Part shown: positions 1 through 54,742 of the stretch, piece after piece
Numbering within the stretch: position 1 is the stretch's first letter
Layout: each line of letters opens with the position of its first letter
DNA from: Eledone cirrhosa
Taxonomy: Eukaryota
Reading direction: 5' to 3'
DNA: 64,000 nt
Assembly (NCBI GenBank): GCA_964016885.1
Contig: OZ024744.1
Location: 71,920,001-71,984,000 of the forward strand
Notes under the pieces: generated by a model
Told to the model about the DNA's origin: nothing
The model's database searches: none
What the model saw: the letters and a program-made list of their open reading frames with translations, nothing else
Program-made: the position numbers and the translations under genes

Positions 1-184
1 AAGAGCAAACGCTCCAGCGCAGTCAGGCGAGGCTTAGGACAAGGTACGACGGTTAGGCGGTAGCAGATGACAGACGCGATGTACGCGTTAGCCACCTCCG
101 CTCGACCTTTCAGGGATAGCTTCCTCTCGGCCCATTTCTGGGTGAGAGAAACCACCCTGCTCGTCACCTCGTCCCAGTTTTTGT
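1..184 (-). mobile_element. 5'-truncated Tx1/L1-clade LINE copy 0 (runs off window start)
   Basis: Near-identical to 7481-7663 (ORF2 of copy 2); homology stops at 184 where (AAT)n begins. Confidence 0.9.
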
Positions 185-211
185 AATAATAATAATAATA
201 ATAATAATAAT
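184..211. repeat. (AAT)n tract between LINE copies 0 and 1
   Basis: Perfect TAA repeats seen directly. Confidence 0.95.
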
Positions 212-466
212 GATTTCTTTATTAATCACAAGGGTTTACATCAAGTAGACATTAAGGACAGTGCAGGACAATACAGGACGGTACAAATGGGCATTTCTGC
301 GTGTAAAAAAACAAAAAAAAAACAGAGGGTGTAACAAAAAATAACAATGAAAAATTCCCCAATAGGGGGGAGACTTCGGAGGGACATTTGTGGAGAAAGC
401 CCAGTAAAAAGCCACAATGACCCTGACCACCAAGGCAAGTGCCCTCTCCCAGTTTCCACCTTTAAT

Positions 467-3400
467 TTACAGATATATACTCAGAGTAGGCCCATTCACT
501 CGGACCATTCTTGCTTCTCTCACCCATCTTTCAACCAAATGCTGGGAAGAGAGCACTTCCCTCTCTACTCTGATTTTCCTTTTCAAATGAAATTTGAAAA
601 AGTCAATCAGAGCATCACCGAAGAGATAAGTGCTCGTCTTCAGCCATTTCAAACGTGTCCACCATACTATCTCTTTCGCCATGGCCACCAGACAGATAAA
701 AACTGCCTGCCCTTCCCGGCTAAAGGAGGAGGGCGGGGCAATCCTCACGATGGACTCAGATGATAGCCGGATCCGTCCTAAACGCGACAGCAGGTGTTCG
801 ACATAAACCTACAAGTCAGCAATTTTCGGACACTGGACGAGTGCGTGCAGGACGGTTTCGTCGCTCTGCGAGCATCTCGGACATGCCCGGCTGACGGCAC
901 CTCCATGCCTGTAGAGTTTATCCCGAACTGGCAAAGCTCCTCGGTAGCACTGCCAGGCCAGAGATTTCTGGAAGTTTTCCATAGGCCCTGGCCCGAAAGT
1001 TCTTCCGAAGAGATTGGCTAGTTGATTTTCGTCGACGCCTAGAGTTTCCCCAAGTACGTCGTCGCTCTTCCCCTCCACTAATCCTCTATAGAACGCCGAG
1101 GTGGAGTTTCCACCGATCACATTGCCCGCTTGGTCGAGGGCTGTGAGCGCCTGAAGACATTCCAGTCTCCAGGCGCTCCCTCTCGGTCTTCGCTTGACCC
1201 AGGACTGCAGCTCCGTCAAGGAAACGAGCTGGGGAAATACGTGTCTAGCAAACGGCGACCACACCTGATCACCGTCGAGGAAGAGGTGGAGATGTCGTAG
1301 CTTGAGCGCGTGCCTGCGCATCATCAGCCACGGCATGCCCAGCCCTCCACGTAGCGGGTGTTGACAACAGATGGACCGCCTGACCATCGGAGCGCGTCCC
1401 TTCCACAAAAAGCGAAAGAGCAAACGCTCCAGCGCAGCCAGGCGAGGCTTAGGACAAGGTACGACGGTCAGGCGGTAGCAGATGACAGACGCGATGTACG
1501 CGTTAGCCACCTCCGCTCGACCTTTCAGGGATAGCTTCCTCTCCGCTCATTTCTGGGTGAGAGAAGCCACCCTGCTCGTCACCTCGTCCCAGTTTTTGTC
1601 CGTCTGGAGGTCAGGACCGAACCAGACCCCTAGCAATTTAACCGGTCCGTCCGTCCAGCGTCCGACGACGCTGTTGGACGGCATGGACCTGCCTCTCCAG
1701 GTGCCGAGCTGCTGGCCCACTGACTTTTCCTGGTTGATCATTGCTCCTGTCACCGCTTCGTATTCACTTAGTGTAGTGCCGATCGCCTCGATGTGTTTGG
1801 CGTTCGACACCACTACGGTGACATCGTCCGCATATGCTGACACGGATCTTCCGCATCCTAGTTCGCGCGGGACGCCCCTCAACGTCTCCAGTTTGTGCAG
1901 TAATGGCTCGAGAGTCAATACGTACAAGAGGGACGAGAGGGGAGATCCTTGGCGGACCGAGCGCATGATGTTGAACGGTTCCGACAGGTGACCTTTCACT
2001 CTCACCACAGAGCAGATGTCGCTGTGCATGGCAGCGATCCAGCCTCTGAAGACGGGCCCAAAGCCAGCCGCCCTCAGGACTACCGCTAGGTAACGATGGT
2101 CGACCCTATCGAAAGCTTTCGACTGATCTAAATTGATCAAGGACCCACCCGTGCCAGGTTCCTTAGCTACCCTCTCTACGATGTATCGCATGAGGTGGAG
2201 GTTGTCGTGGATGGATCTGTCGGGAATGGCGCATGTCTGCGCCTCTCCCACCAGTCCACCAACGACAAGCGCCAACCTCTTTGCTAGCACCTTGGCCAAT
2301 ATCTTGAACTCTGTGTTTAGCAGAGTTATGGGCCGGAAATTATCTATGTTATCCCCCTTGTTCGGATCCTTTCTCATCAGTGCCACCGCTCCTCGGCTTA
2401 CAGAACTGGGAATTCTCCCGTTCTGTTGCCAGTTGCAGTAGACGTCCGCCAAGAGGCCTCCGAACAAGTCTGGCATCTGTACGTAAAGTTCATAGGGCAG
2501 ACCATCCAAACCAGGCGATTTACCCCTTGTGCAGCCAGTCATTGCTTCCCTTACTTCAGCGGTTGTTATCGGCTTTTCGCAACACTTCGCCTCAGTGGCC
2601 GAGAGCCGCGGCAGTCCGTCGAGGTAGACACTAAAGTCCATCCCTCGACCCGGCCCACCGCTGCCCCCGAACAGTTGAGCGAAGTGTCGCTGAAAAGCTT
2701 CACACATTTGCCCGGGATCGAGTAGCATGCGCCCGTCGTGGTCCACCAAAGACCGGATCGTGGCTTTGTTGCCACGACGCGCCACCGCCACTAGGGCCCA
2801 TTGAACGGCTTTCGTCCCCTCGTGTCTGAGAGCACGCACCCTTGCTCTGACAACGCAGCCTTCGTGCTTTGCATTGAAGAATTGGTCAAGGGCCAATTCC
2901 GCCGCAAGCACGTCGGTCACAATGCCTTTGCTAAGCGCCTCGTCTAATTTTCTAACTAGTTCTCCCTCTGCTCTATTTTTCTCTATTGCTAAAGCCTTAC
3001 TAAACCTAATGGATTATATTCCAATCGCTCTTTTCAGAGCAAACCACCACTTGTTGTTGACGATGGCCCCCGTCAACGCCCGATTAACTAGTTCGCTAAT
3101 CCGGTCTCTGTAGGCCTTGCGCGCTGGTAAGGACGCGTTTAGCTTCCAGTAGCCGGGTCCTCGTCTATGAAGCCTATCTAAGTCAAGCACACAGATCACG
3201 AATTTGTGGTCCGTGTAGCTGACTATCTTGAATTGTGGACAGCCTATGCTAGACCTATCTATTTCCCTACAAAATACTCTATCTAGATATGATCTGGATG
3301 ACCCTATGCGATTTGTCCAAGTCCACATTGGTACATTCGGGAAATCCATTCGGTATCTGTCAGACAGTTCAAAACGTCTGAGCAGGTTGGTGAGACTCTT

Positions 3401-3886
3401 GCACCCTCCTTCCCTATCCACTAATCCCACACAATCCCAGCGTGCATCTAAGATCCCGTTCCAGTCGCCCACTAACACTAAAGAGCGGGACGTTCCAAGA
3501 AAGGTCTCCAGACGCCGGAAGAAATCAGGCCGCCCTGCTCCTGTCGGGGCATAGACGGCCACTAGCGTGAAAGCTTGCCCGTCTCCACTGGTCACGTCCA
3601 GCACCACCAGCTTACCCTCTGGGTCCAGGAAGATGGCCCCTATGGCGAGATCCAAACCTCTCCGAAAAAGCACAGCAACTCCGCCCCCCGATCCAGGACG
3701 GCTGGGACATGCGTACACATCGTAGCCACCGAAGATCGGTGCGAAGGCCCGTGCTTCGGAGATTCAGGTCTTGCTGATGGCCACTACATCTATGTTTAGT
3801 GACCTGAGGTCGTTGAGCAGGTGACCCTGCTTCCATGACGACCCCAAGCCACGCGCATTTATGCTGCCTATTCTGAGTGAGGTCAT
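467..3886 (-). pseudogene. LINE ORF2 (APE endonuclease-RT-zinc finger), broken by stop codons
   Basis: ORF fragments 3014-3718, 1547-2920, 809-1510 and 467-748 together match the 1139-aa ORF2 of copies 2 and 3. Confidence 0.93.
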
Positions 3887-3921
3887 GTTTAAAATAGAGT
3901 GGAAAAGATGGGAAAGACCAC

Positions 3922-6018
3922 TTACCGTACTTTTCGTAGAGGAGGGATGGTTTTTACATCCCTTTTCACTTGATCGTCTGGTGAAGGGACCGTTGAATCG
4001 TCCCTTCGCCTGGTCGTCGGCTCTTCTATGAGAATGTCTGAATATATTCTTCGATTGATAGCTCCTCCTAGGTCCCTGAAATCACCAACTGCGTTGGGGA
4101 ATTTCGTTTTAGTGTTTGTGTATTGTTTCTGTGCTATTTTTAGCAGTCTTATGTTAGTTGGCGTTTTGATTGGTGCTGGTATTATGTAGTCGTGTTGTGA
4201 AATGTCTGTGTGTTCAATTATGGAAGTCATTAGTTTCTTGTTGTGTGTATTTATTGCCGTGCATTTGTTTTTCTGGGGGTGGGGTGTGGTTCAGCTATTT
4301 TCTTGTCGTTGTTGCTGGGTGTGTGTGTTTTGTTGTTGTGTTTGCGATGTTGGTGCTTGTGGTGGTGGTGTTAAAGGTGTTGTTGGCGGTGGGGTTGTCG
4401 CCGGTGGTGATGGTGGTGCTGGTGTGGGTGGTGATGGTGTTGGTGTTGTTGCTGCTGTGGGTCTCTTTGCAGTAGACTTTACCCTTTTCTCATTTCTTTC
4501 CTCCCTTTTCAAAGGCGACGATGCGCTGCTTCTGCGTTTGTGCCTTCTTACGACCTTTTGCCATCTCTCTCCCACCTCACACTCCATGTCTGATTCTGTG
4601 AGGTCGGGGAGGGGTACCAACTCCACTCTTTCACTTGTTGTTGTTGGTGATGTTTGCACTGGAGTCTCTGTTGCAACTGCATTTGGTATTGCTGTTGTTG
4701 TTGTTAGTATTTCCACTGCTGCTGCTGTTTTTGATTTCCGTGGAGTGGGTATGGGTGCCACGGGCCTATCGTTCCTGGTTGCCGCTTGTCCTGTTGCTGG
4801 TAGCCGTGGAGCCGGATTCGGAAGGAGGGGGGTTTTCTCCTTTCTCAGGGTCTTCTCGTTGCAGAAGGCCCTGAGGTGAGTCTTCGATCCACAGCGAAAG
4901 CATTTCGGGCGTTTGCCCTCAACACTTATGGGCAGTTGAGTGCCGTTATCGAAGTCTATCACATCCGGGATAGCTTCGATGCACTCCTGGTTGGTTTGGA
5001 TTAGCATCTCAATGGAGGAGCCGACCCAATCTTCTCTTACTTTTTTCTGTACTTGCAGTACAGTTGTTTTGTCCTCGATTCCGACGAGGACAGACGCGGC
5101 CAGCCAAGAAGGGGTCATTCCGGGGGGGACGTGGGTCAGTTTGACCCTCACAATTTTTTGCCCACAGTAGGAGGGCACCAACACCATTTCCTCGCTCCTT
5201 AGGGTCACTACTGATTGGGCCTTTGCCTCCTGGGGTGTGGCAAAAAGTACGTCTACGGTGGCATATTTTTTGCCTCGGGTGATGTGCGTTTTCCGCTGCC
5301 ACACAGACCCCAAGGCTTTTTGTATTTGGGCCTCTGTGGCTCTTTCCACCCTACGGGATTTTGTACTTACTGTACGGTACGTGACCGTACAGTGCTCTTG
5401 GGTTTCGAAAAATTTTTCCGCTGCCTTGCAGATTGCTCGGTGTCGGTTCTTTGTAACCATCTTCTTCGCTTCCTCTAATTCCTCATTTGTTATGAGGATT
5501 GTTTCCAAGTTTTTCGCAATACCTGCAAATGAGATTGGTTTTTCTCTGCTGTTGTTGTTGTCGTCAGAGCTGCTGGTACTTTTGTTGTTACTGAAGGTAC
5601 TACGACTACTGCCTCCGCCGCTGTTGCTGTGGTTGTTGTTGGTGTTGCTGCTGCTAATGCTGTTGTTGTTTATGCTGCTGGTGATGCTGTTGCGGCTGCT
5701 ACTGTTGTTTTCATTGTCACTGTTGCTGTTGTTATTACGGCTGCTACTGCTATTATTCCTGACGTCAGACGAATGAACTGGGTTTTCGTATTTCCCGCAC
5801 ACCTGTTTCGTCGCTGTCGTCGTCGTCGTGGAGAAACTTTGCACGCTTTGCACGAGACTTTTCTTTTCTTTCGTCACTTGCGAAAGAGAAGGGAGGGAGA
5901 GAGACACATTTAAAGAAGGGAGGGAGAGAGACAATCTTCTCTCTGCTGTAGTGATGATTGAGGAAGAAGAAGACGGAATGAGTGGGAGTGACGTATGAAA
6001 TTTCTTTTTCGTAGCCAT
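3922..6018 (-). pseudogene. LINE ORF1 (gag-like, CCHC knuckle), premature stop at 4291-4293
   Basis: 575-aa ORF from ATG 6018 containing CFRCGSKTHLRAFC; the C-terminal part continues as ORF 3922-4230. Confidence 0.88.
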
Positions 6019-6232
6019 GTTGTTTTTTGTTTAAAATGAATATTGGGTACAAAACCCCAATAACTGGTTATTTAGCCCCGAAGGGCCAAATAACGGACAG
6101 AAAGACCCCTCTCACGAGGAGGAGGGTGTCTTTATCAACAATTTGGTTCAAGTTTTAAACAATTTACAATTGTTTTAACGGTTAAAAATTACTATACCTT
6201 ACAGAGCCGAGCCTCCGTCAACCATGGCATTC

Positions 6233-6268
6233 AATAATAATAATAATAATGATAATAATAATAATAAT
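6233..6268. repeat. (AAT)n tract between LINE copies 1 and 2
   Basis: Seen directly; one GAT interruption. Confidence 0.95.
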
Positions 6269-6530
6269 GATTTCTTTATTAACCACAAGGGTTTACATAA
6301 AGTAGACATTAAGGACAGTGCAGGACAATGCAGGACGGTACAAATGGGCATTTCTGCGTGTAAAAAAACAAAAACAGAGGATGTAACAAAAATAACAATG
6401 AAAATAACAATGAAAAATTCCCCAATAGGGGGGAGACTTCGGAGGGACATTTGTGGAGAAAGCCCAGTAAAAAGCCACAATGACCCTGACCACCAAGGCA
6501 AGTGCCCTCTCCCAGTTTTCCACCTTTAGT

Positions 6531-9500
6531 TTACAGATATATACTCAGAGTCGGCCCATTCACTCGGGCCATTCTTGCTTCTCTCACCCATCTTTCAACA
6601 AAATGCTGGGAAGAGAGCACTTCCTTCTCTACTCTGATTTTCCTTTTCAAATGAAATTTGAAAAAGTCAATCAGAGCATCACCGAAGAGGAAAGTGCTCG
6701 TCTTCAGCCCTTTCAAACGTGTCCACCATACTATCTCTTTCGCCATGGCCACCAGACAGATAAAAACTGCCTGCCCTTCCCGGCTAAAGGAGGAGGGCGG
6801 GGCAATCCTCACGATAGACTCAGATGATAGCTGGATCCGTCCTAAACGCGACAGCAGGTGTTCGACATAAACCCACAAGTCAGCAATTTTCGGACACTGG
6901 ACGAGTGCGTGCAGGACGGTTTCGTCGCCCTGCGCGCATCTCGGACATGCCCGGCTGACGGCACCTCCATGCCTGTAGAGTTTATCCCGAACTGGCAAGG
7001 CTCCTCGGTAGCACTGCCAGGCCAGAGATTTCTGGAAGTTGTCCATAGGCCCTGGCCCGAAAGTTCTTCCGAAGAGATTGGCTAGTTGATTTTCGTCGAC
7101 GCCTAGAGTTTCCCCAAGTACGTCGTCGCTCTTCCCCTCCACTAATCCTCTATAGAACGCCGAGGTGGAGTTTCCACCGATCACATTGCCCGATTGGTCG
7201 AGGGCTGTGAGCGCCTGAAGACATTCCAGTCTCCAGGCGCTCCCTCTCGGTCTTCGCTTGACCCAGGACTGCAGCTCCGTCAAGGAAACGAGCTGGGGAA
7301 AAACGCGTCTAGCAAACGGCGACCACACCTGATCACCGTCGAGGAAGAGGTGGAGATGTCGTAGCCTGAGCGCGTGCCTGCGCATCATCAGCCACGGCAT
7401 GCCCAGCCCTCCACGTAGCGGGTGTTGACAACAGATGGACCGCCTGACCATCGGAGCACGTCCCTTCCACAAAAGGCGAAAGAGCAAACGCTCCAGCGCA
7501 GTCAGGCGAGGCTTAGGACAAGGTACGACGGTTAGGCGGTAGCAGATGACAGACGCGATGTACGCGTTAGCCACCTCCGCTCGACCTTTCAGGGATAGCT
7601 TCCTCTCCGCCCATTTCTGGGTGAGAGAAGCCACCCTGCTCGTCACCTCGTCCCAGTTTTTGTCCGTCTGGAGGTCCGGACCGAACCAGACCCCTAGCAA
7701 TTTAACCGGTCCGTCCGTCCAGCGCCCGACGACGCTGTTGGACGGCATGGACCTGCCTCTCCAGGTGCCGAGCTGCAGGCCCACTGACTTTTCCTGGTTG
7801 ATCATTGCTCCTGTCACCGCTTCGTATTCTCTTAGTGTAGTGCCGATCGCCTCGATGTGTTTGGCGTTCGACACCACTACGGTGACATCGTCCGCATATG
7901 CTGACACGGATCTTCCGCATCCTAGTTCGCGCGGGACTCCCCTTAACGTCTCCAGTTTGTGCAGTAATGGCTCGAGCGTCAATACGTACAAGAGGGACGA
8001 GAGGGGACATCCTTGGCGGACCGAGCGCATGATGTTGAACGGTTCCGACAGGTGACCTTTCACTCTCACCACAGAGCAGATGTCGCTGTGCATGGCAGCG
8101 ATCCAGCCTCTGAAGACGGGCCCAAAGCCAGCCGCCCTCAGGACTACCGCTAGGTAACGATGGTCGACCCTATCGAAAGCTTTCGACTGATCTAAATTGA
8201 TCAAGGACCCACCCGTGCCAGGTTCCCTAGCTACCCTCTCTACGATGTATCGCATGAGGTGGAGGTTGTCGTGGATGGATCTGTCGGGAATGGCGCATGT
8301 CTGCGCCTCTCCCACCAGACCACCAACGACAAGCGCCAACCTCTTTGCTAGCACCTTGGCCAAAATCTTAAACTCTGTGTTTAGCAGAGTTATGGGCCGG
8401 AAATTGTCTATGTTATCCCCCTTGTTCGGATCCTTTCTCAGCAGTGCCACCGCTCCTCGGCTCACAGAACTGGGAATTCTCCCGTTCTGTTGCCAGTTGC
8501 AGTAGACGTCCGCCAAGAGGCCTCCGAACAAGTCTGGCATCTGTACGTAAAGTTCATAGGGCAGACCATCCAAACCAGGCGATTTACCCCTTGTGCAGCC
8601 AGTCATTGCCTCCCTTACTTCAGCGGCTGTTATCGGCTTTTCGCAACACTTCGCCTCAGTGGCCGAGAGCCGCGGCAGTCCGTCGAGGTAGACACTAAAG
8701 TCCATCCCTCTACCCGGCCCACCGCTGCCCCCGAACAGCTGAGCGAAGTGTCGCTGAAAAGCTTCACACATTTGCCCGGGATCGAGTAGCATGCGCCCGT
8801 TGTGGTCCACCAAAGACCGGGTCGTGGCTTTGTTGCCACGACGCGCTTCCGCCACTCGGGCCCATTGAACGGCTTTCGTCCCCTCGTGTCTGAGAGCACG
8901 CACCCTTGCTCTGACAACGCAGCCTTCGTGCTTTGCATTGAAGAATTGGTCAAGGGCCAATTTCGCCGCAAGCACGTCGGTCGCAATGCCTTTGCTAAGC
9001 GCCTCGTCTAATTTTCTAACTAGTTCTCCCTCTGCTCTATTTTTCTCTATTGCTAAAGCCTTACTAAATCTAATCGATTCTATTCTAATCGCTCTTTTCA
9101 GAGCAAACCACCACTTGTTGTTGACGATGGCCCCCGTCAACGCCCGCTTAACTAGTTCGCTAATCCGGTCTCTGTAGGCCTTGCGCGCTGGTAAGGACGC
9201 GTTTAGCTTCCAGTAGCCGGGTCCTCGTCTATGAAGCCTATCTAAGTCAAGCACACAGATCACGAATTTGTGGTCCGTGTAGCTGACTATCTTGAATTGT
9301 GGACAGCCTATGCTAGACCTATCTATTTCCCTACAAAATACTCTATCTAGATATGATCTGGATGACCCTATGCGGTTTGTCCATGTCCACATTGGCACAT
9401 TCGGGAAATCCAATCGGTACCTGTCAGACAGTTCAAAACGCCTGAGCAGGTTGGTGAGGCTCTTGCACCCTCCACCCCTATCCGCTAATCCCACACAGTC

Positions 9501-9950
9501 CCAGCGTGCATCTAAGATCCCGTTCCAGTCGCCCACTAACACTAAAGAGCGGGACGTTCCAAGAAAGGTCTCCAGACGCCGGAAGAAATCAGGCCGCCCT
9601 GCTCCTGTCGGGGCATAGACGGCCACTAGCCTGAAAGCTTGCCCGTCTCCGCTGGTAACGTCCAGCACCACCAGCTTACCCTCTGGGTCCAGGAAGATGG
9701 CCCGTATGGCGAGATCCAAACCTCTCCGAAAAAGTACAGCAACTCCTCCACCGGATCCAGGACGGCTGGGAGATGCGTACACATCGTAGCCGCCGAAGAT
9801 CGGTGCGAAGGCCCGTGCTTCGGAGATTCTGGTCTCGCTGATGGCCACTACATCTATGTTTAGTGACCTGAGGTCGTTGAGCAGGTGACCCTGCTTCCAT
9901 GACGACCCCAAGCCACGCGCATTTATGCTGCCTATTCTGAGTGAGGTCAT
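6531..9950 (-). CDS. LINE ORF2p: APE endonuclease + reverse transcriptase + C-terminal CCHC zinc finger (Tx1/L1 clade)
   Basis: 1139 aa. APE motifs INARGL, ISET, VYAP, GDWN, YLDR, TDH. L1/Tx1 linker GYWKLN. RT motifs KSPGLDG, FRPITLLN, DQSKAFDRV, QGCPLS, YADD. Zinc finger CPRC...ETVLHALVQC. Confidence 0.96.
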   Translation of the reverse strand: MTSLRIGSINARGLGSSWKQGHLLNDLRSLNIDVVAISETRISEARAFAPIFGGYDVYASPSRPGSGGGVAVLFRRGLDLAIRAIFLDPEGKLVVLDVTSGDGQAFRLVAVYAPTGAGRPDFFRRLETFLGTSRSLVLVGDWNGILDARWDCVGLADRGGGCKSLTNLLRRFELSDRYRLDFPNVPMWTWTNRIGSSRSYLDRVFCREIDRSSIGCPQFKIVSYTDHKFVICVLDLDRLHRRGPGYWKLNASLPARKAYRDRISELVKRALTGAIVNNKWWFALKRAIRIESIRFSKALAIEKNRAEGELVRKLDEALSKGIATDVLAAKLALDQFFNAKHEGCVVRARVRALRHEGTKAVQWARVAEARRGNKATTRSLVDHNGRMLLDPGQMCEAFQRHFAQLFGGSGGPGRGMDFSVYLDGLPRLSATEAKCCEKPITAAEVREAMTGCTRGKSPGLDGLPYELYVQMPDLFGGLLADVYCNWQQNGRIPSSVSRGAVALLRKDPNKGDNIDNFRPITLLNTEFKILAKVLAKRLALVVGGLVGEAQTCAIPDRSIHDNLHLMRYIVERVAREPGTGGSLINLDQSKAFDRVDHRYLAVVLRAAGFGPVFRGWIAAMHSDICSVVRVKGHLSEPFNIMRSVRQGCPLSSLLYVLTLEPLLHKLETLRGVPRELGCGRSVSAYADDVTVVVSNAKHIEAIGTTLREYEAVTGAMINQEKSVGLQLGTWRGRSMPSNSVVGRWTDGPVKLLGVWFGPDLQTDKNWDEVTSRVASLTQKWAERKLSLKGRAEVANAYIASVICYRLTVVPCPKPRLTALERLLFRLLWKGRAPMVRRSICCQHPLRGGLGMPWLMMRRHALRLRHLHLFLDGDQVWSPFARRVFPQLVSLTELQSWVKRRPRGSAWRLECLQALTALDQSGNVIGGNSTSAFYRGLVEGKSDDVLGETLGVDENQLANLFGRTFGPGPMDNFQKSLAWQCYRGALPVRDKLYRHGGAVSRACPRCAQGDETVLHALVQCPKIADLWVYVEHLLSRLGRIQLSSESIVRIAPPSSFSREGQAVFICLVAMAKEIVWWTRLKGLKTSTFLFGDALIDFFKFHLKRKIRVEKEVLSSQHFVERWVREARMARVNGPTLSIYL

Positions 9951-9985
9951 GTTTAAAATAGAGTGGAAAAGATGGGAAAGACCAC

Positions 9986-12115
9986 TTACCGTACTTTTGG
10001 TAGAGGAGGGATGGTTTTTACATCCCTTTGCACTTGATCGTCTGGTGAAGGGACCGTTGAATCGTCCCTTCGGCTGGTCGTTGGCTCTTCTAAGAGAATG
10101 TCTGAGTATACTCTTCGATTGATGGTTCCTCCTAGGTCCCTGAAATCACCAACTGCGTTGGGGAATTTCGTTTTAATATTTGTGTATTGTTTCTGTGCTA
10201 TTTTTAGCAGTCTTATGTTAGTTGGCGTTTTGATTGGTGCTGGTATTATGTAGTCCTGTTGTGAAATGTCTGTGTGTTCAATTATGTAAGTCATTAGTTT
10301 CTTGTTGTGTGTATTTATTGCCGTGCATTTGTTTTTCTGGGGGTGGGGTGTGGTTCTGCTATTTTCTTGTCGTTGTTGCTGGGTGTGTGTGTTTTGTTGT
10401 TGTGTTTGCGATGTTGGTGCTTGTGGTGGTGGTGTTGAAGGTGTTGTTGGCGGTGGGGTTGTCGCCGGTGGTGATGGTGGTGCTGGTGTGGGTGGTGATG
10501 GTGTTGGTGGTGTTGCTGCTGTGGGTCTCTTTGCAGTAGACTTTACCCTTTTCTCATTTCTTTCCTCCCTTTTCAAAGGCGACGATGCGCTGCTTCTGCG
10601 TTTGTGCCTTCTTGCGACCTTTTGCCATCCCTCTCCCACCTCACACTCCATGTCTGATTCTGTAAGGTCGGGGAGGGGTACCAGCTCCACTCTTTCACTT
10701 GTTGTTGTTGGTGATGTTTGCACTGGAGTCTCTGTTGCAGCTGCATTTGGTATTGCTGTTGTTGTTGTTAATATTTCCACTGCTGCTGCTGTCTTTGATT
10801 TCCGTGGAGTGGGTATGGGTGCCACGGACCTATCGTTCCTGGTTGCCGCTTGTCCTGTTGCTGGTAGCCGTGGAGCCGGATTCGGAAGGAGGGGGGTTTT
10901 CTCCTTTCTCAGGGTCTTCTCGTTGCAGAAGGCCCTGAGGTGAGTCTTCGATCCACAGCGAAAGCATTTCGGGCGTTTGCCCTCAACACTTATGGGCAGT
11001 TGAGTGCCGTTATCGAAGTCTATCACATCCGGGATAGCTTCGATGCACTCCTGGTTGGTTTGGATTAGCATCTCAATGGAGGAGCCGACCCAATCTTCTC
11101 TTACTTTTTTCTGTACTTGCAGTACAGTTGTTTTGTCCTCGATTCCGACGAGGACAGACGCGGCCAGCCAAGAAGGGGTCATTCCGGGGGGGACGTGGGT
11201 CAGTTTGACCCTCACAATTTTTTGCCCACAGTAGGAGGGCACCAACACCATTTCCTCGCTCCTTAGGGTCACTACTGATTGGGCCTTTGCCTCCTGGGGT
11301 GTGGCAAAAAGTACGTCTACGGTGGCATATTTTTTGCCTCGGGTGATGTGCGTTTTCCGCTGCCACACAGACCCCAAGGCTTTTTGTATTTGGGCCTCTG
11401 TGGCTCTTTCCACCCTACGGGATTTTGTACTTACTGTACGGTACGTGACCGTACAGTGCTCTTGGGTTTCGAAAAATTTTTCCGCTGCCTTGCAGATTGC
11501 TCGGTGTCCGTTCTTTGTAACCATCTTCTTCGCTTCCTCTAATTCCTCATTTGTTATGAGGATTGTTTCCAAGTTTTTCGCAATACCTGCAAATGAGATT
11601 GGTTTTTCTCTGCTGTTGTTGTTGTCGTCAGAGCTGCTGGTACTTTTGTTGTTGCTGCAGGTACTACGACTACTGCCTCCGCCGCTGTTGCTGTGGTTGT
11701 TGTTGGTGTTGCTGCTGCTAATGCTGTTGTTGTTTATGCTGCTGGTGATGCTGTTGCGGCTGCTACTGTTGTTTTCATTGTCACTGTTGCTGTTGTTATT
11801 ACGGCTGCTACTGCTATTATTCCTGACGTCAGACGAATGAACTGGGTTTTCGTATTTCCCGCACACCTGTTTCGTCGCTGTCGTCGTCGTCGTGGAGAAA
11901 CTTTGCACGCTTTGCACAGACTTTTCTTTTCTTTCGTCCCTTGCGAAAGAGAAGGGAGGGAGAGAGACACATTTAAAGAAGGGAGGGAGAGAGACAATCT
12001 TCTCTCTGCTGTAGTGATGATTGAGGAAGAAGAAGACGGAATGAGTGGGAGTGACGTATGAAATTTCTTTTTCGTAGCCATGTTGTTTTTTGTTTAAAAT
12101 GAATATTGGGTACAA
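9986..12115 (-). CDS. LINE ORF1p (nucleic-acid-binding, CX2CX4HX4C knuckle); true start uncertain
   Basis: Open frame of 709 codons, but it starts at TTG. First in-frame ATG is at 11524; the ATG at 12081 is out of frame. Confidence 0.8.
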   Translation of the reverse strand: MYPIFILNKKQHGYEKEISYVTPTHSVFFFLNHHYSREKIVSLPPFFKCVSLPPFSFARDERKEKSVQSVQSFSTTTTTATKQVCGKYENPVHSSDVRNNSSSSRNNNSNSDNENNSSSRNSITSSINNNSISSSNTNNNHSNSGGGSSRSTCSNNKSTSSSDDNNNSREKPISFAGIAKNLETILITNEELEEAKKMVTKNGHRAICKAAEKFFETQEHCTVTYRTVSTKSRRVERATEAQIQKALGSVWQRKTHITRGKKYATVDVLFATPQEAKAQSVVTLRSEEMVLVPSYCGQKIVRVKLTHVPPGMTPSWLAASVLVGIEDKTTVLQVQKKVREDWVGSSIEMLIQTNQECIEAIPDVIDFDNGTQLPISVEGKRPKCFRCGSKTHLRAFCNEKTLRKEKTPLLPNPAPRLPATGQAATRNDRSVAPIPTPRKSKTAAAVEILTTTTAIPNAAATETPVQTSPTTTSERVELVPLPDLTESDMECEVGEGWQKVARRHKRRSSASSPLKREERNEKRVKSTAKRPTAATPPTPSPPTPAPPSPPATTPPPTTPSTPPPQAPTSQTQQQNTHTQQQRQENSRTTPHPQKNKCTAINTHNKKLMTYIIEHTDISQQDYIIPAPIKTPTNIRLLKIAQKQYTNIKTKFPNAVGDFRDLGGTINRRVYSDILLEEPTTSRRDDSTVPSPDDQVQRDVKTIPPLPKVR

Positions 12116-12295
12116 AACCCCAATAACTGGTTATTTAGCCCCGAAGGGCCAAATAACGGACAGAAAGACCCCTCTCACGAGGAGGAGGGTGTCTTTATCA
12201 ACAATTTGGTTCAAGTTTTAAACAATTTACAATTGTTTTAACGGTTAAAAATTACTATACCTTACAGAGCCGAGCCTCCGTCAACCATGGCATTC

Positions 12296-12336
<41 letters not shown>

Positions 12337-12349
12337 CAATAATAATAAT
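12296..12349. repeat. (AAT)n/(AAC) tract between LINE copies 2 and 3
   Basis: Seen directly. Confidence 0.95.
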
Positions 12350-12612
12350 GATTTCTTTATTAACCACAAGGGTTTACATAAAGTAGACATTAAGGACAGT
12401 GCAGGACAATGCAGGACGGTACAAATGGGCATTTCTGCGTGTAAAAAAAACAAAAATAGAGGATGTAACAAAAATAACAATGAAAATAACAATGAAAAAT
12501 TCCCCAATAGGGGGGAGACTTCGGAGGGACATTTGTGGAGAAAGCCCAGTAAAAAGCCACAATGACCCTGACCACCAAGGCAAGTGCCCTCTCCCAGTTT
12601 TCCACCTTTAGT

Positions 12613-15600
12613 TTACAGATATATACTCAGAGTCGGCCCATTCACTCGGGCCATTCTTGCTTCTCTCACCCATCTTTCAACAAAATGCTGGGAAGAGAGC
12701 ACTTCCTTCTCTACTCTGATTTTCCTTTTCAAATGAAATTTGAAAAAGTCAATCAGAGCATCACCGAAGAGGTAAGTGCTCGTCTTCAGCCCTTTCAAAC
12801 GTGTCCACCATACTATCTCTTTCGCCATGGCCACCAGACAGATAAAAACTGCCTGCCCTTCCCGGCTAAAGGAGGAGGGCGGGGCAATCCTCACGATAGA
12901 CTCAGATGATAGCTGGATCCGTCCTAAACGCGACAGCAGGTGTTCGACATAAACCCACAAGTCAGCAATTTTCGGACACTGGACGAGTGCGTGCAGGACG
13001 GTTTCGTCGCCCTGCGCGCATCTCGGACATGCCCGGCTGACGGCACCTCCATGCCTGTAGAGTTTATCCCGAACTGGCAAGGCTCCTCGGTAGCACTGCC
13101 AGGCCAGAGATTTCTGGAAGTTGTCCATAGGCCCTGGCCCGAAGGTTCTTCCGAAGAGATTGGCTAGTTGATTTTCGTCGACGCCTAGAGTTTCCCCAAG
13201 TACGTCGTCGCTCTTCCCCTCCACTAATCCTCTATAGAACGCCGAGGTGGAGTTTCCACCGATCACATTGCCCGATTGGTCGAGGGCTGTGAGCGCCTGA
13301 AGACATTCCAGTCTCCAGGCGCTCCCTCTCGGTCTTCGCTTGACCCAGGACTGCAGCTCCGTCAAGGAAACGAGCTGGGGAAAAACGCGTCTAGCAAACG
13401 GCGACCACACCTGATCACCGTCGAGGAAGAGGTGGAGATGTCGTAGCCTGAGCGCGTGCCTGCGCATCATCAGCCACGGCATGCCCAGCCCTCCACGTAG
13501 CGGGTGTTGACAACAGATGGACCGCCTGACCATCGGAGCACGTCCCTTCCACAAAAAGCGAAAGAGCAAACGCTCCAGCGCAGTCAGGCGAGGCTTAGGA
13601 CAAGGTACGACGGTTAGGCGGTAGCAGATGACAGACGCGATGTACGCGTTAGCCACCTCCGCTCGACCTTTCAGGGATAGCTTCCTCTCCGCCCATTTCT
13701 GGGTGAGAGAAGCCACCCTGCTCGTCACCTCGTCCCAGTTTTTGTCCGTCTGGAGGTCCGGACCGAACCAGACCCCTAGCAATTTAACCGGTCCGTCCGT
13801 CCAGCGCCCGACGACGCTGTTGGACGGCATGGACCTGCCTCTCCAGGTGCCGAGCTGCAGGCCCACTGACTTTTCCTGGTTGATCATTGCTCCTGTCACC
13901 GCTTCGTATTCTCTTAGTGTAGTGCCGATCGCCTCGATGTGTTTGGCGTTCGACACCACTACGGTGACATCGTCCGCATATGCTGACACGGATCTTCCGC
14001 ATCCTAGTTCGCGCGGGACTCCCCTCAACGTCTCCAGTTTGTGCAGTAATGGCTCGAGAGTCAATACGTACAAGAGGGACGAGAGGGGACATCCTTGGCG
14101 GACCGAGCGCATGATGTTGAACGGTTCCGACAGGTGACCGTTCACTCTCACCACAGAGCAGATGTCGCTGTGCATGGCAGCGATCCAGCCTCTGAAGACG
14201 GGCCCAAAGCCAGCCGCCCTCAGGACTGCCGCTAGGTAACGATGGTCGACCCTATCGAAAGCTTTCGACTGATCTAAATTGATCAAGGACCCACCCGTGC
14301 CAGGTTCCCTAGCTACCCTCTCTACGATGTATCGCATGAGGTGGAGGTTGTCGTGGATGGATCTGTCGGGAATGGCGCATGTCTGCGCCTCTCCCACCAG
14401 ACCACCAACGACAAGCGCCAACCTCTTTGCTAGCACCTTGGCCAAAATCTTAAACTCTGTGTTTAGCAGAGTTATGGGCCGGAAATTGTCTATGTTATCC
14501 CCCTTGTTCGGATCCTTTCTCAGCAGTGCCACCGCTCCTCGGCTCACAGAACTGGGAATTCTCCCGTTCTGTTGCCAGTTGCAGTAGACGTCCGCCAAGA
14601 GGCCTCCGAACAAGTCTGGCATCTGTACGTAAAGTTCATAGGGCAGACCATCCAAACCAGGCGATTTACCCCTTGTGCAGCCAGTCATTGCCTCCCTTAC
14701 TTCAGCGGCTGTTATCGGCTTTTCGCAACACTTCGCCTCAGTGGCCGAGAGCCGCGGCAGTCCGTCGAGGTAGACACTAAAGTCCATCCCTCTACCCGGC
14801 CCCCCGCTGCCCCCGAACAGCTGAGCGAAGTGTCGCTGAAAAGCTTCACACATTTGCCCGGGATCGAGTAGCATGCGCCCGTCGTGGTCCACCAAAGACC
14901 GGATCGTGGCTTTGTTGCCACGACGCGCCTCCGCCACTCGGGCCCATTGAACGGCTTTCGTCCCCTCGTGTCTGAGAGCACGCACCCTAGCTCTGACAAC
15001 GCAGCCTTCGTGCTTTGCATTGAAGAATTGGTCAAGGGCCAATTTCGCCGCAAGCACGTCGGTCGCAATGCCTTTGCTAAGCGCCTCGTCTAATTTTCTA
15101 ACTAGTTCTCCCTCTGCTCTATTTTTCTCTATTGCTAAAGCCTTACTAAACCTAATCGATTCTATTCTAATCGCTCTTTTCAGAGCAAACCACCACTTGT
15201 TGTTGACGATGGCCCCCGTCAACGCCCGCTTAACTAGTTCGCTAATCCGGTCTCTGTAGGCCTTGCGCGCTGGTAAGGACGCGTTTAGCTTCCAGTAGCC
15301 GGGTCCTCGTCTATGAAGCCTATCTAAGTCAAGCACACAGATCACGAATTTGTGGTCCGTGTAGCTGACTATCTTGAATTGTGGACAGCCTATGCTAGAC
15401 CTATCTATTTCCCTACAAAATACTCTATCTAGATATGATCTGGATGACCCTATGCGGTTTGTCCAAGTCCACATTGGCACATTCGGGAAATCCAATCGGT
15501 ACCTGTCAGACAGTTCAAAACGCCTGAGCAGGTTGGTGAGGCTCTTGCACCCTCCACCCCTATCCGCTAATCCCACACAGTCCCAGCGTGCATCTAAGAT

Positions 15601-16032
15601 CCCGTTCCAGTCGCCCACTAACACTAAAGAGCGCGACGTTCCAAGAAAGGTCTCCAGACGCCGGAAGAAATCAGGCCGCCCTGCTCCTGTCGGGGCATAG
15701 ACGGCCACTAGCCTGAAAGCTTGCCCGTCTCCGCTGGTCACGTCCAGCACCACCAGCTTACCCTCTGGGTCCAGGAAGATGGCCCGTATGGCGAGATCCA
15801 AACCTCTCCGAAAAAGCACAGCAACTCCTCCACCCGATCCAGGACGGCTGGGAGATGCGTACACATCGTAGCCGCCGAAGATCGGTGCGAAGGCCCGTGC
15901 TTCGGAGATTCTGGTCTCGCTGATGGCCACTACATCTATGTTTAGTGACCTGAGGTCGTTGAGCAGGTGACCCTGCTTCCATGACGACCCCAAGCCACGC
16001 GCATTTATGCTGCCTATTCTGAGTGAGGTCAT
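12613..16032 (-). CDS. LINE ORF2p (APE-RT-ZnF), intact
   Basis: 1139 aa, a handful of substitutions versus copy 2. Confidence 0.96.
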   Translation of the reverse strand: MTSLRIGSINARGLGSSWKQGHLLNDLRSLNIDVVAISETRISEARAFAPIFGGYDVYASPSRPGSGGGVAVLFRRGLDLAIRAIFLDPEGKLVVLDVTSGDGQAFRLVAVYAPTGAGRPDFFRRLETFLGTSRSLVLVGDWNGILDARWDCVGLADRGGGCKSLTNLLRRFELSDRYRLDFPNVPMWTWTNRIGSSRSYLDRVFCREIDRSSIGCPQFKIVSYTDHKFVICVLDLDRLHRRGPGYWKLNASLPARKAYRDRISELVKRALTGAIVNNKWWFALKRAIRIESIRFSKALAIEKNRAEGELVRKLDEALSKGIATDVLAAKLALDQFFNAKHEGCVVRARVRALRHEGTKAVQWARVAEARRGNKATIRSLVDHDGRMLLDPGQMCEAFQRHFAQLFGGSGGPGRGMDFSVYLDGLPRLSATEAKCCEKPITAAEVREAMTGCTRGKSPGLDGLPYELYVQMPDLFGGLLADVYCNWQQNGRIPSSVSRGAVALLRKDPNKGDNIDNFRPITLLNTEFKILAKVLAKRLALVVGGLVGEAQTCAIPDRSIHDNLHLMRYIVERVAREPGTGGSLINLDQSKAFDRVDHRYLAAVLRAAGFGPVFRGWIAAMHSDICSVVRVNGHLSEPFNIMRSVRQGCPLSSLLYVLTLEPLLHKLETLRGVPRELGCGRSVSAYADDVTVVVSNAKHIEAIGTTLREYEAVTGAMINQEKSVGLQLGTWRGRSMPSNSVVGRWTDGPVKLLGVWFGPDLQTDKNWDEVTSRVASLTQKWAERKLSLKGRAEVANAYIASVICYRLTVVPCPKPRLTALERLLFRFLWKGRAPMVRRSICCQHPLRGGLGMPWLMMRRHALRLRHLHLFLDGDQVWSPFARRVFPQLVSLTELQSWVKRRPRGSAWRLECLQALTALDQSGNVIGGNSTSAFYRGLVEGKSDDVLGETLGVDENQLANLFGRTFGPGPMDNFQKSLAWQCYRGALPVRDKLYRHGGAVSRACPRCAQGDETVLHALVQCPKIADLWVYVEHLLSRLGRIQLSSESIVRIAPPSSFSREGQAVFICLVAMAKEIVWWTRLKGLKTSTYLFGDALIDFFKFHLKRKIRVEKEVLSSQHFVERWVREARMARVNGPTLSIYL

Positions 16033-16067
16033 GTTTAAAATAGAGTGGAAAAGATGGGAAAGACCAC

Positions 16068-18197
16068 TTACCGTATTTTTGGTAGAGGAGGGATGGTTTT
16101 TACATCCCTTTTCACTTGATCGTCTGGTGAAGGGACCGTTGAATCGTCCCTTCGGCTGGTCGTCGGCTCTTCTAAGAGAATGTCTGAATATACTCTTCGA
16201 TTAATGGTTCCTCCTAGGTCCCTGAAATCACCAACTGCGTTGGGGAATTTCGTTTTAATGTTTGTGTATTGTTTCTGTGCTATTTTTAGCAGTCTTATGT
16301 TAGTTGGCGTTTTGATTGGTGCTGGTATTATGTAGTCCTGTTGTGAAATGTCTGTGTGTTCAATTATGTAAGTCATTAGTTTCTTGTTGTGTGTATTTAT
16401 TGCCGTGCATTTGTTTTTCTGGGGGTGGGGTGTGGTTCTGCTATTTTCTTGTCGTTGTTGCTGGGTGTGTGTGTTTTGTTGTTGTGTTTGCGATGTTGGT
16501 GCTTGTGGTGGTGGTGTTGAAGGTGTTGTTGGCGGTGGGGTTGTCGCCGGTGGTGATGGTGGTGCTGGTGTGGGTGGTGATGGTGTTGGTGGTGTTGCTG
16601 CTGTGGGTCTCTTTGCAGTAGACTTTACCCTTTTCTCATTTCTTTCCTCCCTTTTCAAAGGCGACGATGCGCTGCTTCTGCGTTTGTGCCTTCTTGCGAC
16701 CTTTTGCCATCCCTCTCCCACCTCACACTCCATGTCTGATTCTGTAAGGTCGGGGAGGGGTACCAGCTCCACTCTTTCACTTGTTGTTGTTGGTGATGTT
16801 TGCACTGGAGTCTCTGTTGCAGCTGCATTTGGTATTGCTGTTGTTGTTGTTAATATTTCCACTGCTGCTGCTGTCTTTGATTTCCGTGGAGTGGGTATGG
16901 GTGCCACGGACCTATCGTTCCTGGTTGCCGCTTGTCCTGTTGCTGGTAGCCGTGGAGCCGGATTCGGAAGGAGGGGGGTTTTCTCCTTTCTCAGGGTCTT
17001 CTCGTTGCAGAAGGCCCTGAGGTGAGTCTTCGATCCACAGCGAAAGCATTTCGGGCGTTTGCCCTCAACACTTATGGGCAGTTGAGTGCCGTTATCGAAG
17101 TCTATCACATCCGGGATAGCTTCGATGCACTCCTGGTTGGTTTGGATTAGCATCTCAATGGAGGAGCCGACCCAATCTTCTCTTACTTTTTTCTGTACTT
17201 GCAGTACAGTTGTTTTGTCCTCGATTCCGACGAGGACAGACGCGGCCAGCCAAGAAGGGGTCATTCCGGGGGGGACGTGGGTCAGTTTGACCCTCACAAT
17301 TTTTTGCCCACAGTAGGAGGGCACCAACACCATTTCCTCGCTCCTTAGGGTCACTACTGATTGGGCCTTTGCCTCCTGGGGTGTGGCAAAAAGTACGTCT
17401 ACGGTGGCATATTTTTTGCCTCGGGTGATGTGCGTTTTCCGCTGCCACACAGACCCCAAGGCTTTTTGTATTTGGGCCTCTGTGGCTCTTTCCACCCTAC
17501 GGGATTTTGTACTTACTGTACGGTACGTGACCGTACAGTGCTCTTGGGTTTCGAAAAATTTTTCCGCTGCCTTGCAGATTGCTCGGTGTCCGTTCTTTGT
17601 AACCATCTTCTTCGCTTCCTCTAATTCCTCATTTGTTATGAGGATTGTTTCCAAGTTTTTCGCAATACCTGCAAATGAGATTGGTTTTTCTCTGCTGTTG
17701 TTGTTGTCGTCAGAGCTGCTGGTACTTTTGTTGTTGCTGCAGGTACTACGACTACTGCCTCCGCCGCTGTTGCTGTGGTTGTTGTTGGTGTTGCTGCTGC
17801 TAATGCTGTTGTTGTTTATGCTGCTGGTGATGCTGTTGCGGCTGCTACTGTTGTTTTCATTGTCACTGTTGCTGTTGTTATTACGGCTGCTACTGCTATT
17901 ATTCCTGACGTCAGACGAATGAACTGGGTTTTCGTATTTCCCGCACACCTGTTTCGTCGCTGTCGTCGTCGTCGTGGAGAAACTTTGCACGCTTTGCACA
18001 GACTTTTCTTTTCTTTCGTCCCTTGCGAAAGAGAAGGGAGGGAGAGAGACACATTTAAAGAAGGGAGGGAGAGAGACAATCTTCTCTCTGCTGTAGTGAT
18101 GATTGAGGAAGAAGAAGACGGAATGAGTGGGAGTGACGTATGAAATTTCTTTTTCGTAGCCATGTTGTTTTTTGTTTAAAATGAATATTGGGTACAA
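16068..18197 (-). CDS. LINE ORF1p; true start uncertain
   Basis: As in copy 2; first in-frame ATG at 17606. Confidence 0.8.
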   Translation of the reverse strand: MYPIFILNKKQHGYEKEISYVTPTHSVFFFLNHHYSREKIVSLPPFFKCVSLPPFSFARDERKEKSVQSVQSFSTTTTTATKQVCGKYENPVHSSDVRNNSSSSRNNNSNSDNENNSSSRNSITSSINNNSISSSNTNNNHSNSGGGSSRSTCSNNKSTSSSDDNNNSREKPISFAGIAKNLETILITNEELEEAKKMVTKNGHRAICKAAEKFFETQEHCTVTYRTVSTKSRRVERATEAQIQKALGSVWQRKTHITRGKKYATVDVLFATPQEAKAQSVVTLRSEEMVLVPSYCGQKIVRVKLTHVPPGMTPSWLAASVLVGIEDKTTVLQVQKKVREDWVGSSIEMLIQTNQECIEAIPDVIDFDNGTQLPISVEGKRPKCFRCGSKTHLRAFCNEKTLRKEKTPLLPNPAPRLPATGQAATRNDRSVAPIPTPRKSKTAAAVEILTTTTAIPNAAATETPVQTSPTTTSERVELVPLPDLTESDMECEVGEGWQKVARRHKRRSSASSPLKREERNEKRVKSTAKRPTAATPPTPSPPTPAPPSPPATTPPPTTPSTPPPQAPTSQTQQQNTHTQQQRQENSRTTPHPQKNKCTAINTHNKKLMTYIIEHTDISQQDYIIPAPIKTPTNIRLLKIAQKQYTNIKTKFPNAVGDFRDLGGTINRRVYSDILLEEPTTSRRDDSTVPSPDDQVKRDVKTIPPLPKIR

Positions 18198-18377
18198 AAC
18201 CCCAATAACTGGTTATTTAGCCCCGAAGGGCCAAATAACGGACAGAAAGACCCCTCTCACGAGGAGGAGGGTGTCTTTATCAACAATTTGGTTCAAGTTT
18301 TAAACAATTTACAATTGTTTTAACGGTTAAAAATTACTATACCTTACAGAGCCGAGCCTCCGTCAACCATGGCATTC

Positions 18378-18418
<41 letters not shown>

Positions 18419-18455
18419 CAATAATAATAATAATAACAATAATAATAATAATAAT
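18378..18455. repeat. (AAT)n tract, contiguous with a SINE 3' tail
   Basis: Seen directly; followed by tgtttctaatttgggcacaaggccagc. Confidence 0.93.
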
Positions 18456-18491
18456 TGTTTCTAATTTGGGCACAAGGCCAGCAATTACCCA
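18453..18491 (-). mobile_element. 3' fragment of tRNA-derived SINE
   Basis: Matches the 3' ends of the SINE copies at 33603 and 36160. Confidence 0.8.
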
Positions 18492-18527
18492 ATATATTAC
18501 TCGTTCTTTATTTATAATAATAATAAT

Positions 18528-19569
18528 GCTTTCTTTATTAACCACAAGGGTTTACACAAATTAGACATTAAGGACAGTACAGGACAATACAGGACGGTAC
18601 AAATGGGCATTTCTGAGTGTAAAAAAACCCCCAAAACAGTGGATATAACAAATAGAACAATGAAAATTCCCCAATAGGGGGGAGATTTCCGAGGGCCATC
18701 GTGGAGAAAGCCCATTAAAAAAGCCACAGTGACCCTGACCACCAGGGCAAGTGCCCTCTCCCAGTTTTCCACCTTCAGTTTACAGGCATATACTCGGAGT
18801 AGGCCCATTCCCTCGGGCCATTCTTGCCTTTCTCACCCATCTTTGAACAAAATGCTGGGAAGAGAGCACTTCCCTCTCTACCCTGAGATTCCTTTTCAAA
18901 TGAATTTTGAAATGAAATTTGAAGAGGTAAGTGCTCGTCTTCAGCCCTTTCAGACGCGTGCACCATACTATCTCTTTCGCTATGGCCACCAGACCGATAC
19001 AAACTGCTTGCCCTTCCTGGCTAAAGGAAGAGGGCGGGGTAATCCTCACGATGGACTCCGCTGATAGCTGGATCCGTTCTACACGCGACAGCAGGTGTTC
19101 GACATAAACCCACAAGTCAGCAATGCTCGGACACTGGACGAATGCATACAAGACGGTTTAGTCGCCCTGCTCGCATCTCGAACATGCCCAGTTGACGGCA
19201 CCTCCATGCCTGTAGAGTTTATCCCGAACTGGCAAAGCTCCTCGGTAGCACTGCCAGGCCAGGGATTTCTGGAAGTTGTCCATGTCCATAGGCCCCGGCC
19301 GAAAGTTCTTCCGAAGAGATTGGCTAGTTGATTTTCGTCGACGCCTAGAGTTTCCCCAAGTACGTCGTCGCTCTTCCCCTCCACTAATCCTCTATAGAAC
19401 GACAAGGTGGAGTTTCCATCGATCACATTGCCCGACTGGTCGAGGGCCGTGAGCATCTGAAGACATTCCAGTCTCCAAGCGCTCCCTCTCGGTCTTCGCT
19501 TGACCCAGGACTGCAGCTCCGTCAAGGAGACGAGCTGGAGAAAGACGCGTCTAGCAAAGGGCGACCACA
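18528..19569 (-). mobile_element. 5'-truncated, older Tx1/L1 LINE copy 4
   Basis: Diverged 3' ~1 kb of the same family with indels; (AAT)n on both sides (18515-18527 and 19570-19597). Confidence 0.92.
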
Positions 19570-19597
19570 AAATAATAATAATAATAATAATAATAAT

Positions 19598-38577: not shown

Positions 38578-38664
<87 letters not shown>

Positions 38665-38807
38665 TGAAATAGCGATGTATGTTTGAATGTATGTATAGTA
38701 CATTTGATAATATATTCTATGTTTATTTAAAACATTTTGAAGACCATTCGTTATGAGTTTTAAAGTAGTTACTATGTCACTTACTTTGTCTCGGCAAAAA
38801 CAAAGGG

Positions 38808-39445: not shown

Positions 39446-39499
<54 letters not shown>

Positions 39500-54016: not shown

Positions 54017-54742
<726 letters not shown>

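Follow-up and report, generated by a model that had tools for sequence, protein, structure and literature searches.

A young LINE family in ATT tracts of Eledone cirrhosa, with tandem copies that often carry the 5' end of a neighbour

A 64,000-nucleotide stretch of the Eledone cirrhosa genome (assembly GCA_964016885.1, contig OZ024744.1, positions 71,920,001 to 71,984,000; hereafter the window) contains, at positions 1-19570, five copies of one family of long interspersed nuclear elements (LINEs), all on the minus strand and designated E, A, B, C and D in order of increasing coordinate. In our interpretation, to which we assign a probability of about 0.6, this is a young LINE array in ATT tracts, in which tandem copies often carry the 5' end of their neighbour and the tract preceding it, as a result of insertions finished on the resident copy. 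A sequence-only reading of the same DNA had proposed that the element targets (AAT)n and stacks into its own tail; its claims are considered below together with the results that bear on them.

Chimeric Copies

Copy C (12350..18377, minus strand) is full length and is a chimera, whose front and upstream tract come from copy B (6269..12295) and whose back comes from a very young other lineage. Its 5' part (16261..18377; element positions 1-2117) shows no difference from B 10179-12295, including B's private deletion in open reading frame 1 (ORF1), and at least 10 differences from every other of the 98 copies compared. All 25 positions at which C and B differ lie 3' of element position 2117; in that 3' part (12350..16260; element positions 2118-6027) C differs at 1 position from L188, a copy on another chromosome, and at 2 from L173, versus 25 from B. 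The ORF1 deletion was found at 2 of 166 sampled sites, namely in B and C, both in the window. The 54-nt spacer between C and B (12296..12349; (ATT)4 GTT GTT (ATT)12) is an exact repeat, interruptions included, of the last 54 nt of the tract upstream of C (18378..18455; (ATT)6 GTT (ATT)5 GTT GTT (ATT)12). The spacers of the array had been described as differing from one another, and they do vary in length and interruptions, but this repeat means that they are not independent.

Adjacent pairs of copies were compared with 5005 young non-neighbour pairs as controls, with an indel-prone site masked. Identity from the 5' end exceeded 1 kb in 11 of 43 adjacent pairs versus 22 of the 5005 controls, and 500 nt in 19 of 43 versus 153 of 5005. 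The 43 pairs comprised (i) 16 from arrays chosen for their spacing, including the window's two, (ii) 16 obtained by going through 40 junctions in listed order, leaving out one (at the other 24 the upstream copy was truncated or belonged to a sister family), and (iii) 11 from chosen regions, selected partly for unusual spacers; three pairs parted by other sequence and one with just 539 shared bases were omitted. Among the listed-order junctions alone, 5/16 pairs exceeded this 1-kb length of 5' identity.

Spacers that repeat interrupted or unique upstream sequence occur in the window, in L115/L150, L139/L140, L155/L156 and L161/L162, and in arrays a278, a436 and a441. The unshared part is nearer a dispersed copy in the upstream member in 8 of the 10 pairs that are not identical throughout. 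In L150/L149 and L151/L152 (37 private shared variants) an old front is joined to a young back, and nested chimeras with two different breakpoints were found in L115/L150/L149 and L162/L161/L160. The chimera breakpoints lie 1.2-4.4 kb into the element, nine of ten within its first 3.1 kb.

(ATT)n Tracts as Insertion Target

In the 3.0-Gb genome, 5' starts were located by exact match to the first 26 bases of the element, and 1564 of 1604 such starts are preceded by an in-phase (ATT)3; exact 3' ends of the youngest type number 3598. ATT flanks 13 of the 13 best dispersed copies on both sides, and copies of the sister family start after ATT in 9 of the 11 cases examined. The flanking sequence is in many cases the tract-bearing end of another element, which agrees with the earlier claim that the repeat is a target and not merely a tail. 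The (ATT)n tract is thus the true target of full-length copies, with strict polarity, and the rule is looser for truncated ones.

The latter were assessed in a sample blind to the 5' end (of the first 100 3' ends on contig C1, 60 were taken and those pairable with a listed start skipped). It gave 61 ends: 23 with element position 1, all of which sit after ATT, and 38 others, of which 13 were set aside (sister-family copies, or full-length copies with rearrangements), leaving 25 that were counted as truncated. ATT is present at the 5' junction of 9 of these 25 (in one partly through the element's own letters), with a chance expectation for (ATT)3 of ~0.2-0.3%, estimated from 42 kb of the window only. 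An earlier count of 10/51 was discarded because alignment breaks had been misread as truncations, an error corrected by chaining. The tabulation of flanks proposed in the sequence-only reading therefore finds ATT at full-length starts but not at the other 16 of the 25 truncated junctions, the young copies L100 and L102 among them, and these 16 speak against a uniform rule. An R4-like end, a family start or a SINE-like head (SINE, short interspersed nuclear element) lies past the tail of 11 of the 16, which suggests that these copies probably also entered a tract and that its upstream part was lost. No recognised tract-bearing neighbour follows the tail of the other five, two of which lie in ACT-type repeats and three of which are unexplained.

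The pure ATT run at the 5' side peaks at 7-8 units (34/98 copies) and is shorter than 5 units in 6/98. The uniform junctions and this peak could reflect a duplication of ~21-24 bp or, alternatively, an AUU leader. A fixed target duplication is not supported: the length of the 5' run does not correlate with that of the 3' run (rho 0.08, n=98), and it is mainly in arrays that an interruption on one side is mirrored on the other. Pure repeats mask target-site duplications; copy L013 has ~30 nt on both sides, and in L082 and L093 a long 5' run faces at most one ATT unit on the 3' side. Insertion tracts are often compound, of the form (CTT)n(ATT)n (L004, L009, L085, L093, L129, L141, L191), and (CTT)n may be contributed or targeted by a different element. 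The same tracts also hold, in the same polarity, at least two additional LINE-like 3' ends whose terminal motifs are related (L010, L121, L130, L181, L199, L214).

Head-to-tail junctions number 602 among ~2587 starts, or ~23% (the two counts come from slightly different search patterns). Tails of the family make up 5660 of 31790 ATT tracts of at least 7 units, that is, at most 18% of such tracts, the tract count taking only those preceded by A, C or G and leaving out those preceded by T. A strong preference for the family's own tails was accordingly rejected, the enrichment being at least 1.3-fold (23% versus at most 18%). Since this preference is small, stacking is largely explained by tract use in a family that has made many tracts itself. 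Of the earlier proposal that arrays are built by target regeneration, the head-to-tail junctions bear out the stacking, but the small preference and a growth that probably proceeds partly by copying the neighbour qualify it.

ATT tracts also exist apart from the LINE, and many come from an R4/Dong-like element of opposite polarity. Its 3' ends number 9492 in the genome; among 30 sampled, 28 run into (TAA)4, and at 8 the LINE family or a sibling adjoins in tail-to-tail arrangement.

Proposed Mechanism and Alternatives

Tract occupancy, polarity, arrays and chimeric structure are direct observations, and the following steps are our interpretation of them. An apurinic/apyrimidinic (APE) endonuclease would nick the (AAT)n strand, where the (AUU)n end of the element RNA would pair and prime reverse transcription. 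Tract would remain on both flanks of the new copy, so that the target would be kept and multiplied. Where a resident copy lies just downstream, the end of the complementary DNA (cDNA) would invade it, on the sister chromatid or the homologue, copy its 5' 0.5-4 kb and the preceding tract, and rejoin upstream, leaving a chimera and a duplicated spacer. Ordinary recombination between neighbours would contribute occasional exact duplicates and patches. Kilobase-sized neighbour-derived tracts would be frequent in this family because targeting places each new copy beside a homologue. More tentative, and in our judgement slightly short of an even chance, is the further idea that completion on the resident neighbour is a regular pathway rather than an accident, the self-renewing microsatellite putting the cDNA beside a homologue that supplies the 5' end.

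Several observations weigh against this interpretation. All pairs outside the window come from contig C1. No 5' stretch longer than 500 nt is shared in 24 of the 43 pairs, which look like plain independent insertions, and in 2 of the 10 non-identical pairs it is the downstream copy that looks younger. Truncation points of the family lie mostly past element position 5000, unlike the chimera breakpoints, so that simple rescue of a typical truncated cDNA does not fit. Copy A and copy a278.1 have the reverse arrangement, a young 5' part on an old 3' part. The a234 pair is duplicated exactly over 6 kb, a179 carries an internal patch, and the duplicated segment of a436 starts in unique sequence outside any ATT run. 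These reverse mosaics, together with a234, a179 and a436, indicate that plain DNA recombination acts too and can yield the same end structure.

The chimeras might accordingly have formed after ordinary targeted insertions, by gene conversion or crossover between the tandem allele and its pre-insertion counterpart, or through unequal exchange among neighbouring copies. Later recombination of this kind, which demonstrably occurs in A, a278.1, a234 and a179, would also leave the whole upstream tract, the neighbour's 5' part and a duplicated spacer. We nevertheless hold it to be unlikely as the general explanation: crossovers would be expected across the whole 6 kb, yet breakpoints cluster towards the 5' end as described; the 3' part of C differs from a dispersed copy by a single change over 3.9 kb, which leaves little time between its insertion and the formation of the chimera; and the nested chimeras with differing breakpoints would require repeated events.

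A second alternative, of comparably low probability, concerns the choice of site, and is not exclusive of completion on a resident copy. In it, the site would be chosen mainly by pairing of the tract with the (AUU)n end of the RNA and with an (AUU)n leader of read-through transcripts, the endonuclease being only loosely specific. It would account for the contrast between full-length junctions, which are in phase and uniform, and truncated ones, which vary and frequently have no ATT, and for the 7-8-unit peak with few short runs; the long 5' runs of L082 and L093 opposite a single 3' unit likewise favour it over a fixed duplication. Some R2 and R1A RNAs use upstream target sequence in a similar manner (PMC3774820, PMC2718515). 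On the other hand, the 9/25 truncated copies that adjoin ATT are leaderless (background ~0.2%), and target choice in Tx1 elements has been attributed to the endonuclease (PMC4494074, PMC1950540). Nor was a ribozyme family found at the element's 5' end: no Rfam family reached its gathering score in the window, and matches in the 5' untranslated region (UTR) were at chance level only. The 5' UTR (window 12070-12310, minus strand), which has no Rfam match, is predicted to form several hairpins, with a fold whose stability exceeds that of every one of 200 shuffles (z -4.5).

It is very unlikely that the chimeras are assembly artefacts. A switch inside the element between haplotypes without and with the new copy would produce exactly the observed structure, but some pairs are 3-5% apart past the breakpoint, the nested three-copy cases have two breakpoints, and the sharp edges recur in 11 of 43 pairs. 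In four other runs no contig covered, at full identity, the deletion shared by B and C, which is uninformative either way, and none of the contigs and short restriction-site-associated DNA (RAD) reads placed on the array spans it.

Pure tandem duplication of a single insertion by unequal crossover, which the C-B spacer repeat and the exact duplicate a234 might recall and which had been named beforehand as a finding that would refute the targeting claim, is refuted for this array by the sequence distances, provided that the assembly is right: A, B, C, D and E each have different nearest relatives, the 3' part of C is closer to at least 8 dispersed copies than to B, A and D are 2% and 10% from B, and E has 4 mismatches to its nearest dispersed copies versus 32 to A.

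Structure of the Array

Every junction in the array is an (AAT)n tract (185-211, 6233-6268, 12296-12349, 18378-18455, 18514-18527 and 19571-19597), and the full-length copies A, B and C have the identical first base; the five same-orientation copies and the common start nucleotide of the initial description were both recovered. Copy E (1..184, minus strand) is young and 5'-truncated (element positions 4633-6027; 1395 bp), with the remaining ~1.2 kb before the window start; it is 99.6% identical to B, and its 5' end abuts the tail of A. Copy A (212..6232, minus strand) has stops in both ORF1 and ORF2. Its 5' 1.46 kb is of the young type, with 4 differences from B and C, and its 3' 4.5 kb is ~2% from each sampled copy. 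The spacer between B and A (6233..6268) reads (ATT)5 ATC (ATT)6 in element sense. Copy B, like C, is on the minus strand and full length.

Between copies C and D lie the 3'-terminal 58 bp of a SINE-like repeat that is abundant (18456..18513, minus strand; 30 full-length matches among the fetched loci), so that the two are not directly adjacent; the tract upstream of C doubles as the tail of this piece. The last 25 nt of the repeat, which occurs at many loci, resemble the LINE 3' end, and it ends in (ATT)n in the same polarity; from this likeness it is a possible SINE partner of the LINE. Copy D (18528..19570, minus strand, with a short tail at 18514-18527) is old and 5'-truncated (element positions 4969-6025; 89.6% identity to B).

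The 5' ends of the two truncated copies had been offered as proof that the repeat is the target. The (AAT)9 tract next to E (185..211) is the tail of A itself and gives no independent evidence of targeting. The (AAT)9 tract next to D (19571..19597) does test it, since the R4/Dong-like element at 19598..22030 (plus strand) has its own 5' junction in that tract. This element is 5'-truncated and decayed, opposite in polarity to the LINE, and contains a reverse transcriptase and a restriction-like endonuclease motif. It shares 88-91% identity with full-span copies in the fetched loci, a relative (L241) carries RVT_1, and it weakly matches the R2 endonuclease region (E 0.026). We take it to be R4/Dong-like on the basis of a published description (PMC7998251) rather than of a tree. 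The likely history of the array is that D and the SINE-like piece entered the tract of the Dong-like element, followed by A, then by E in the tail of A and B before A, and by C before B.

Proteins and Classification of the LINE

ORF2 is intact in B (6531-9950) and C (12613-16032) and encodes 1139 aa, with the Pfam domains Exo_endo_phos (N-terminal APE endonuclease), RVT_1 (reverse transcriptase) and, at the C-terminus, zf-RVT; the APE domain takes up the first 237 aa. Its catalytic positions align to the L1 endonuclease, and the best match among sequences of solved structures, in which few clades are represented, is human L1 ORF2p (E 4e-50, versus 9e-22 for R2). ORF2 thereby places the element in the L1 group of APE retrotransposons that lack long terminal repeats (non-LTR). 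ORF1 of B is frameshifted by the 1-bp deletion, as is that of C (115 aa versus 698 aa in intact copies); together with the stops in A, this leaves no array copy with both ORFs intact. Recent activity had been deduced from the two intact ORF2s; these are confirmed, the broken ORF1s of B and C notwithstanding, and the activity follows from 36 of 84 sampled full-length copies in which both ORFs are intact.

The ORF1 core (copy B, 10880..11524, minus strand) is predicted to form two RNA recognition motif (RRM) folds and one CCHC knuckle. The structure prediction has a confidence (pLDDT) of 92 and tandem RRM matches (best E 7.7e-5); zf-CCHC was matched in 8 of 17 homologues scanned, and the CCHC motif is readable in the sequence itself. 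The protein is thus of type I (RRM plus CCHC) and not of the Transposase_22 type. Type I ORF1p has been linked to Tx1 (PMC5203782) and also occurs in plant L1s. For Tx1 elements, a target preference has been defined as more than 20% of flanks (PMC4494074), and here the target adjoins 1564/1604 starts and 9/25 truncated copies. On these grounds the LINE probably belongs to the Tx1 clade. R4/Dong membership is contradicted by the APE endonuclease at the N-terminus, the restriction-like endonuclease motif being confined to the neighbour at 19598-22030, and membership in Kibi or Koshi by junctions that are (ATT)n rather than (TC)n or (TTC)n.

ORF2 and the 3' end of the LINE are also found in the sister family, which has a different 5' UTR and ORF1, joined at about element position 2262 (L085, L091, L097-L099, L108, L109, L120 and L126, all on contig C1). 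Many copies have large internal deletions with both ends kept (e.g., L100, L105, L113, L136, L138 and L186).

Other Features of the Window

The region 57124-64000 contains a 1210-aa ORF (57695-61327, minus strand; no Pfam match), a direct repeat of 1057 bp and, from 62316 on, a second, inverted copy, and resembles a Penelope-like element. Related pieces lie at 41892-42953 and in a 784-aa ORF (50789-53143). The window also contains a 34-bp minisatellite (24485-25989; 44 copies, 96% matches), a 482-bp direct repeat (54132-54613 and 56014-56495; 97.5% identity) and palindromic stretches at 43511-43864 (354 bp, 97.7%) and 38626-39499 (~870 bp, 85%).

Known Systems and Significance

Microsatellite-targeting Tx1 families, TAA-targeting Dong elements, tandem R1 arrays and strand-invasion L1 chimeras are already known. 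Kibi in (TC)n, Koshi in (TTC)n and crocodilian Tx1 elements in (TTCC)n/(TTTC)n are, like the present LINE, two-ORF APE elements in microsatellites, and tandem copies of the Tx1-driven SINEU-3 parted by target sequence resemble its arrays (PMC4494074, PMC3812793). The target (ATT)n is not listed for Tx1 in the accessible portions of these two papers, which also do not mention neighbour-derived 5' ends, and the LINE differs in its thousands of young, mostly full-length copies. Further sources on the known systems are PMC4640811 and PMC1950540, and active L1-Tx1 and Dong-R4 families have been counted in an octopus, with no targets given in the accessible part of that source (PMC13282606, Table 1). 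Dong, DongAg, DongBg and an ostracod Dong, all of the R4 clade, occupy TAA microsatellites, the same kind of repeat as that of the LINE (PMC3812793, PMC7998251, PMC3774820); they use a restriction-like endonuclease with TAA on the sense strand, whereas the LINE uses APE with ATT, in opposite polarity. No (ATT)n-targeting Tx1 element was described in the literature searched, although Repbase, subscription papers and the supplements of PMC4494074 lay outside the search and may hold one.

Drosophila R1, an APE element of ribosomal DNA, likewise forms head-to-tail arrays by re-insertion in a duplicated target, but with a fixed 14-bp spacer at a unique 28S site, while the LINE has variable repeat spacers, thousands of loci and shared 5' parts (PMC2718515). 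In templated L1 insertions of tumours, the cDNA has been proposed to pair with nearby homologous DNA and to copy and duplicate it (bioRxiv 10.1101/2024.08.27.596794). Those events are rare, mostly shorter than 250 bp and somatic, whereas the tracts of the LINE are kilobases long, inherited and present in about a quarter of the sampled adjacent pairs. Neighbour-templated tandem chimeras were not described in the literature searched, which excluded Repbase and subscription papers. The (ATT)n target is apparently unlisted for APE endonucleases. Chimeric L1s with duplications were reportedly obtained in cultured cells by Gilbert and colleagues in 2005.

How a LINE 5' end becomes joined to its target is understood less well than any other step of retrotransposition, and the exchange of 5' UTRs and ORF1s among LINE lineages is an open question. 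Hundreds of natural tandem junctions with markers make the role of homologous DNA in these processes countable and testable. An APE element that occupies (ATT)n and is opposite in strand to a Dong-like element in the same tracts also suits a comparison of structure and specificity, and tails of the LINE by themselves make up as much as 18% of the counted long ATT tracts of the genome. If completion on the neighbour is indeed a regular pathway, it would build arrays and help to keep most copies full length, and promoters and ORF1s would be swapped between lineages at each stacking event.

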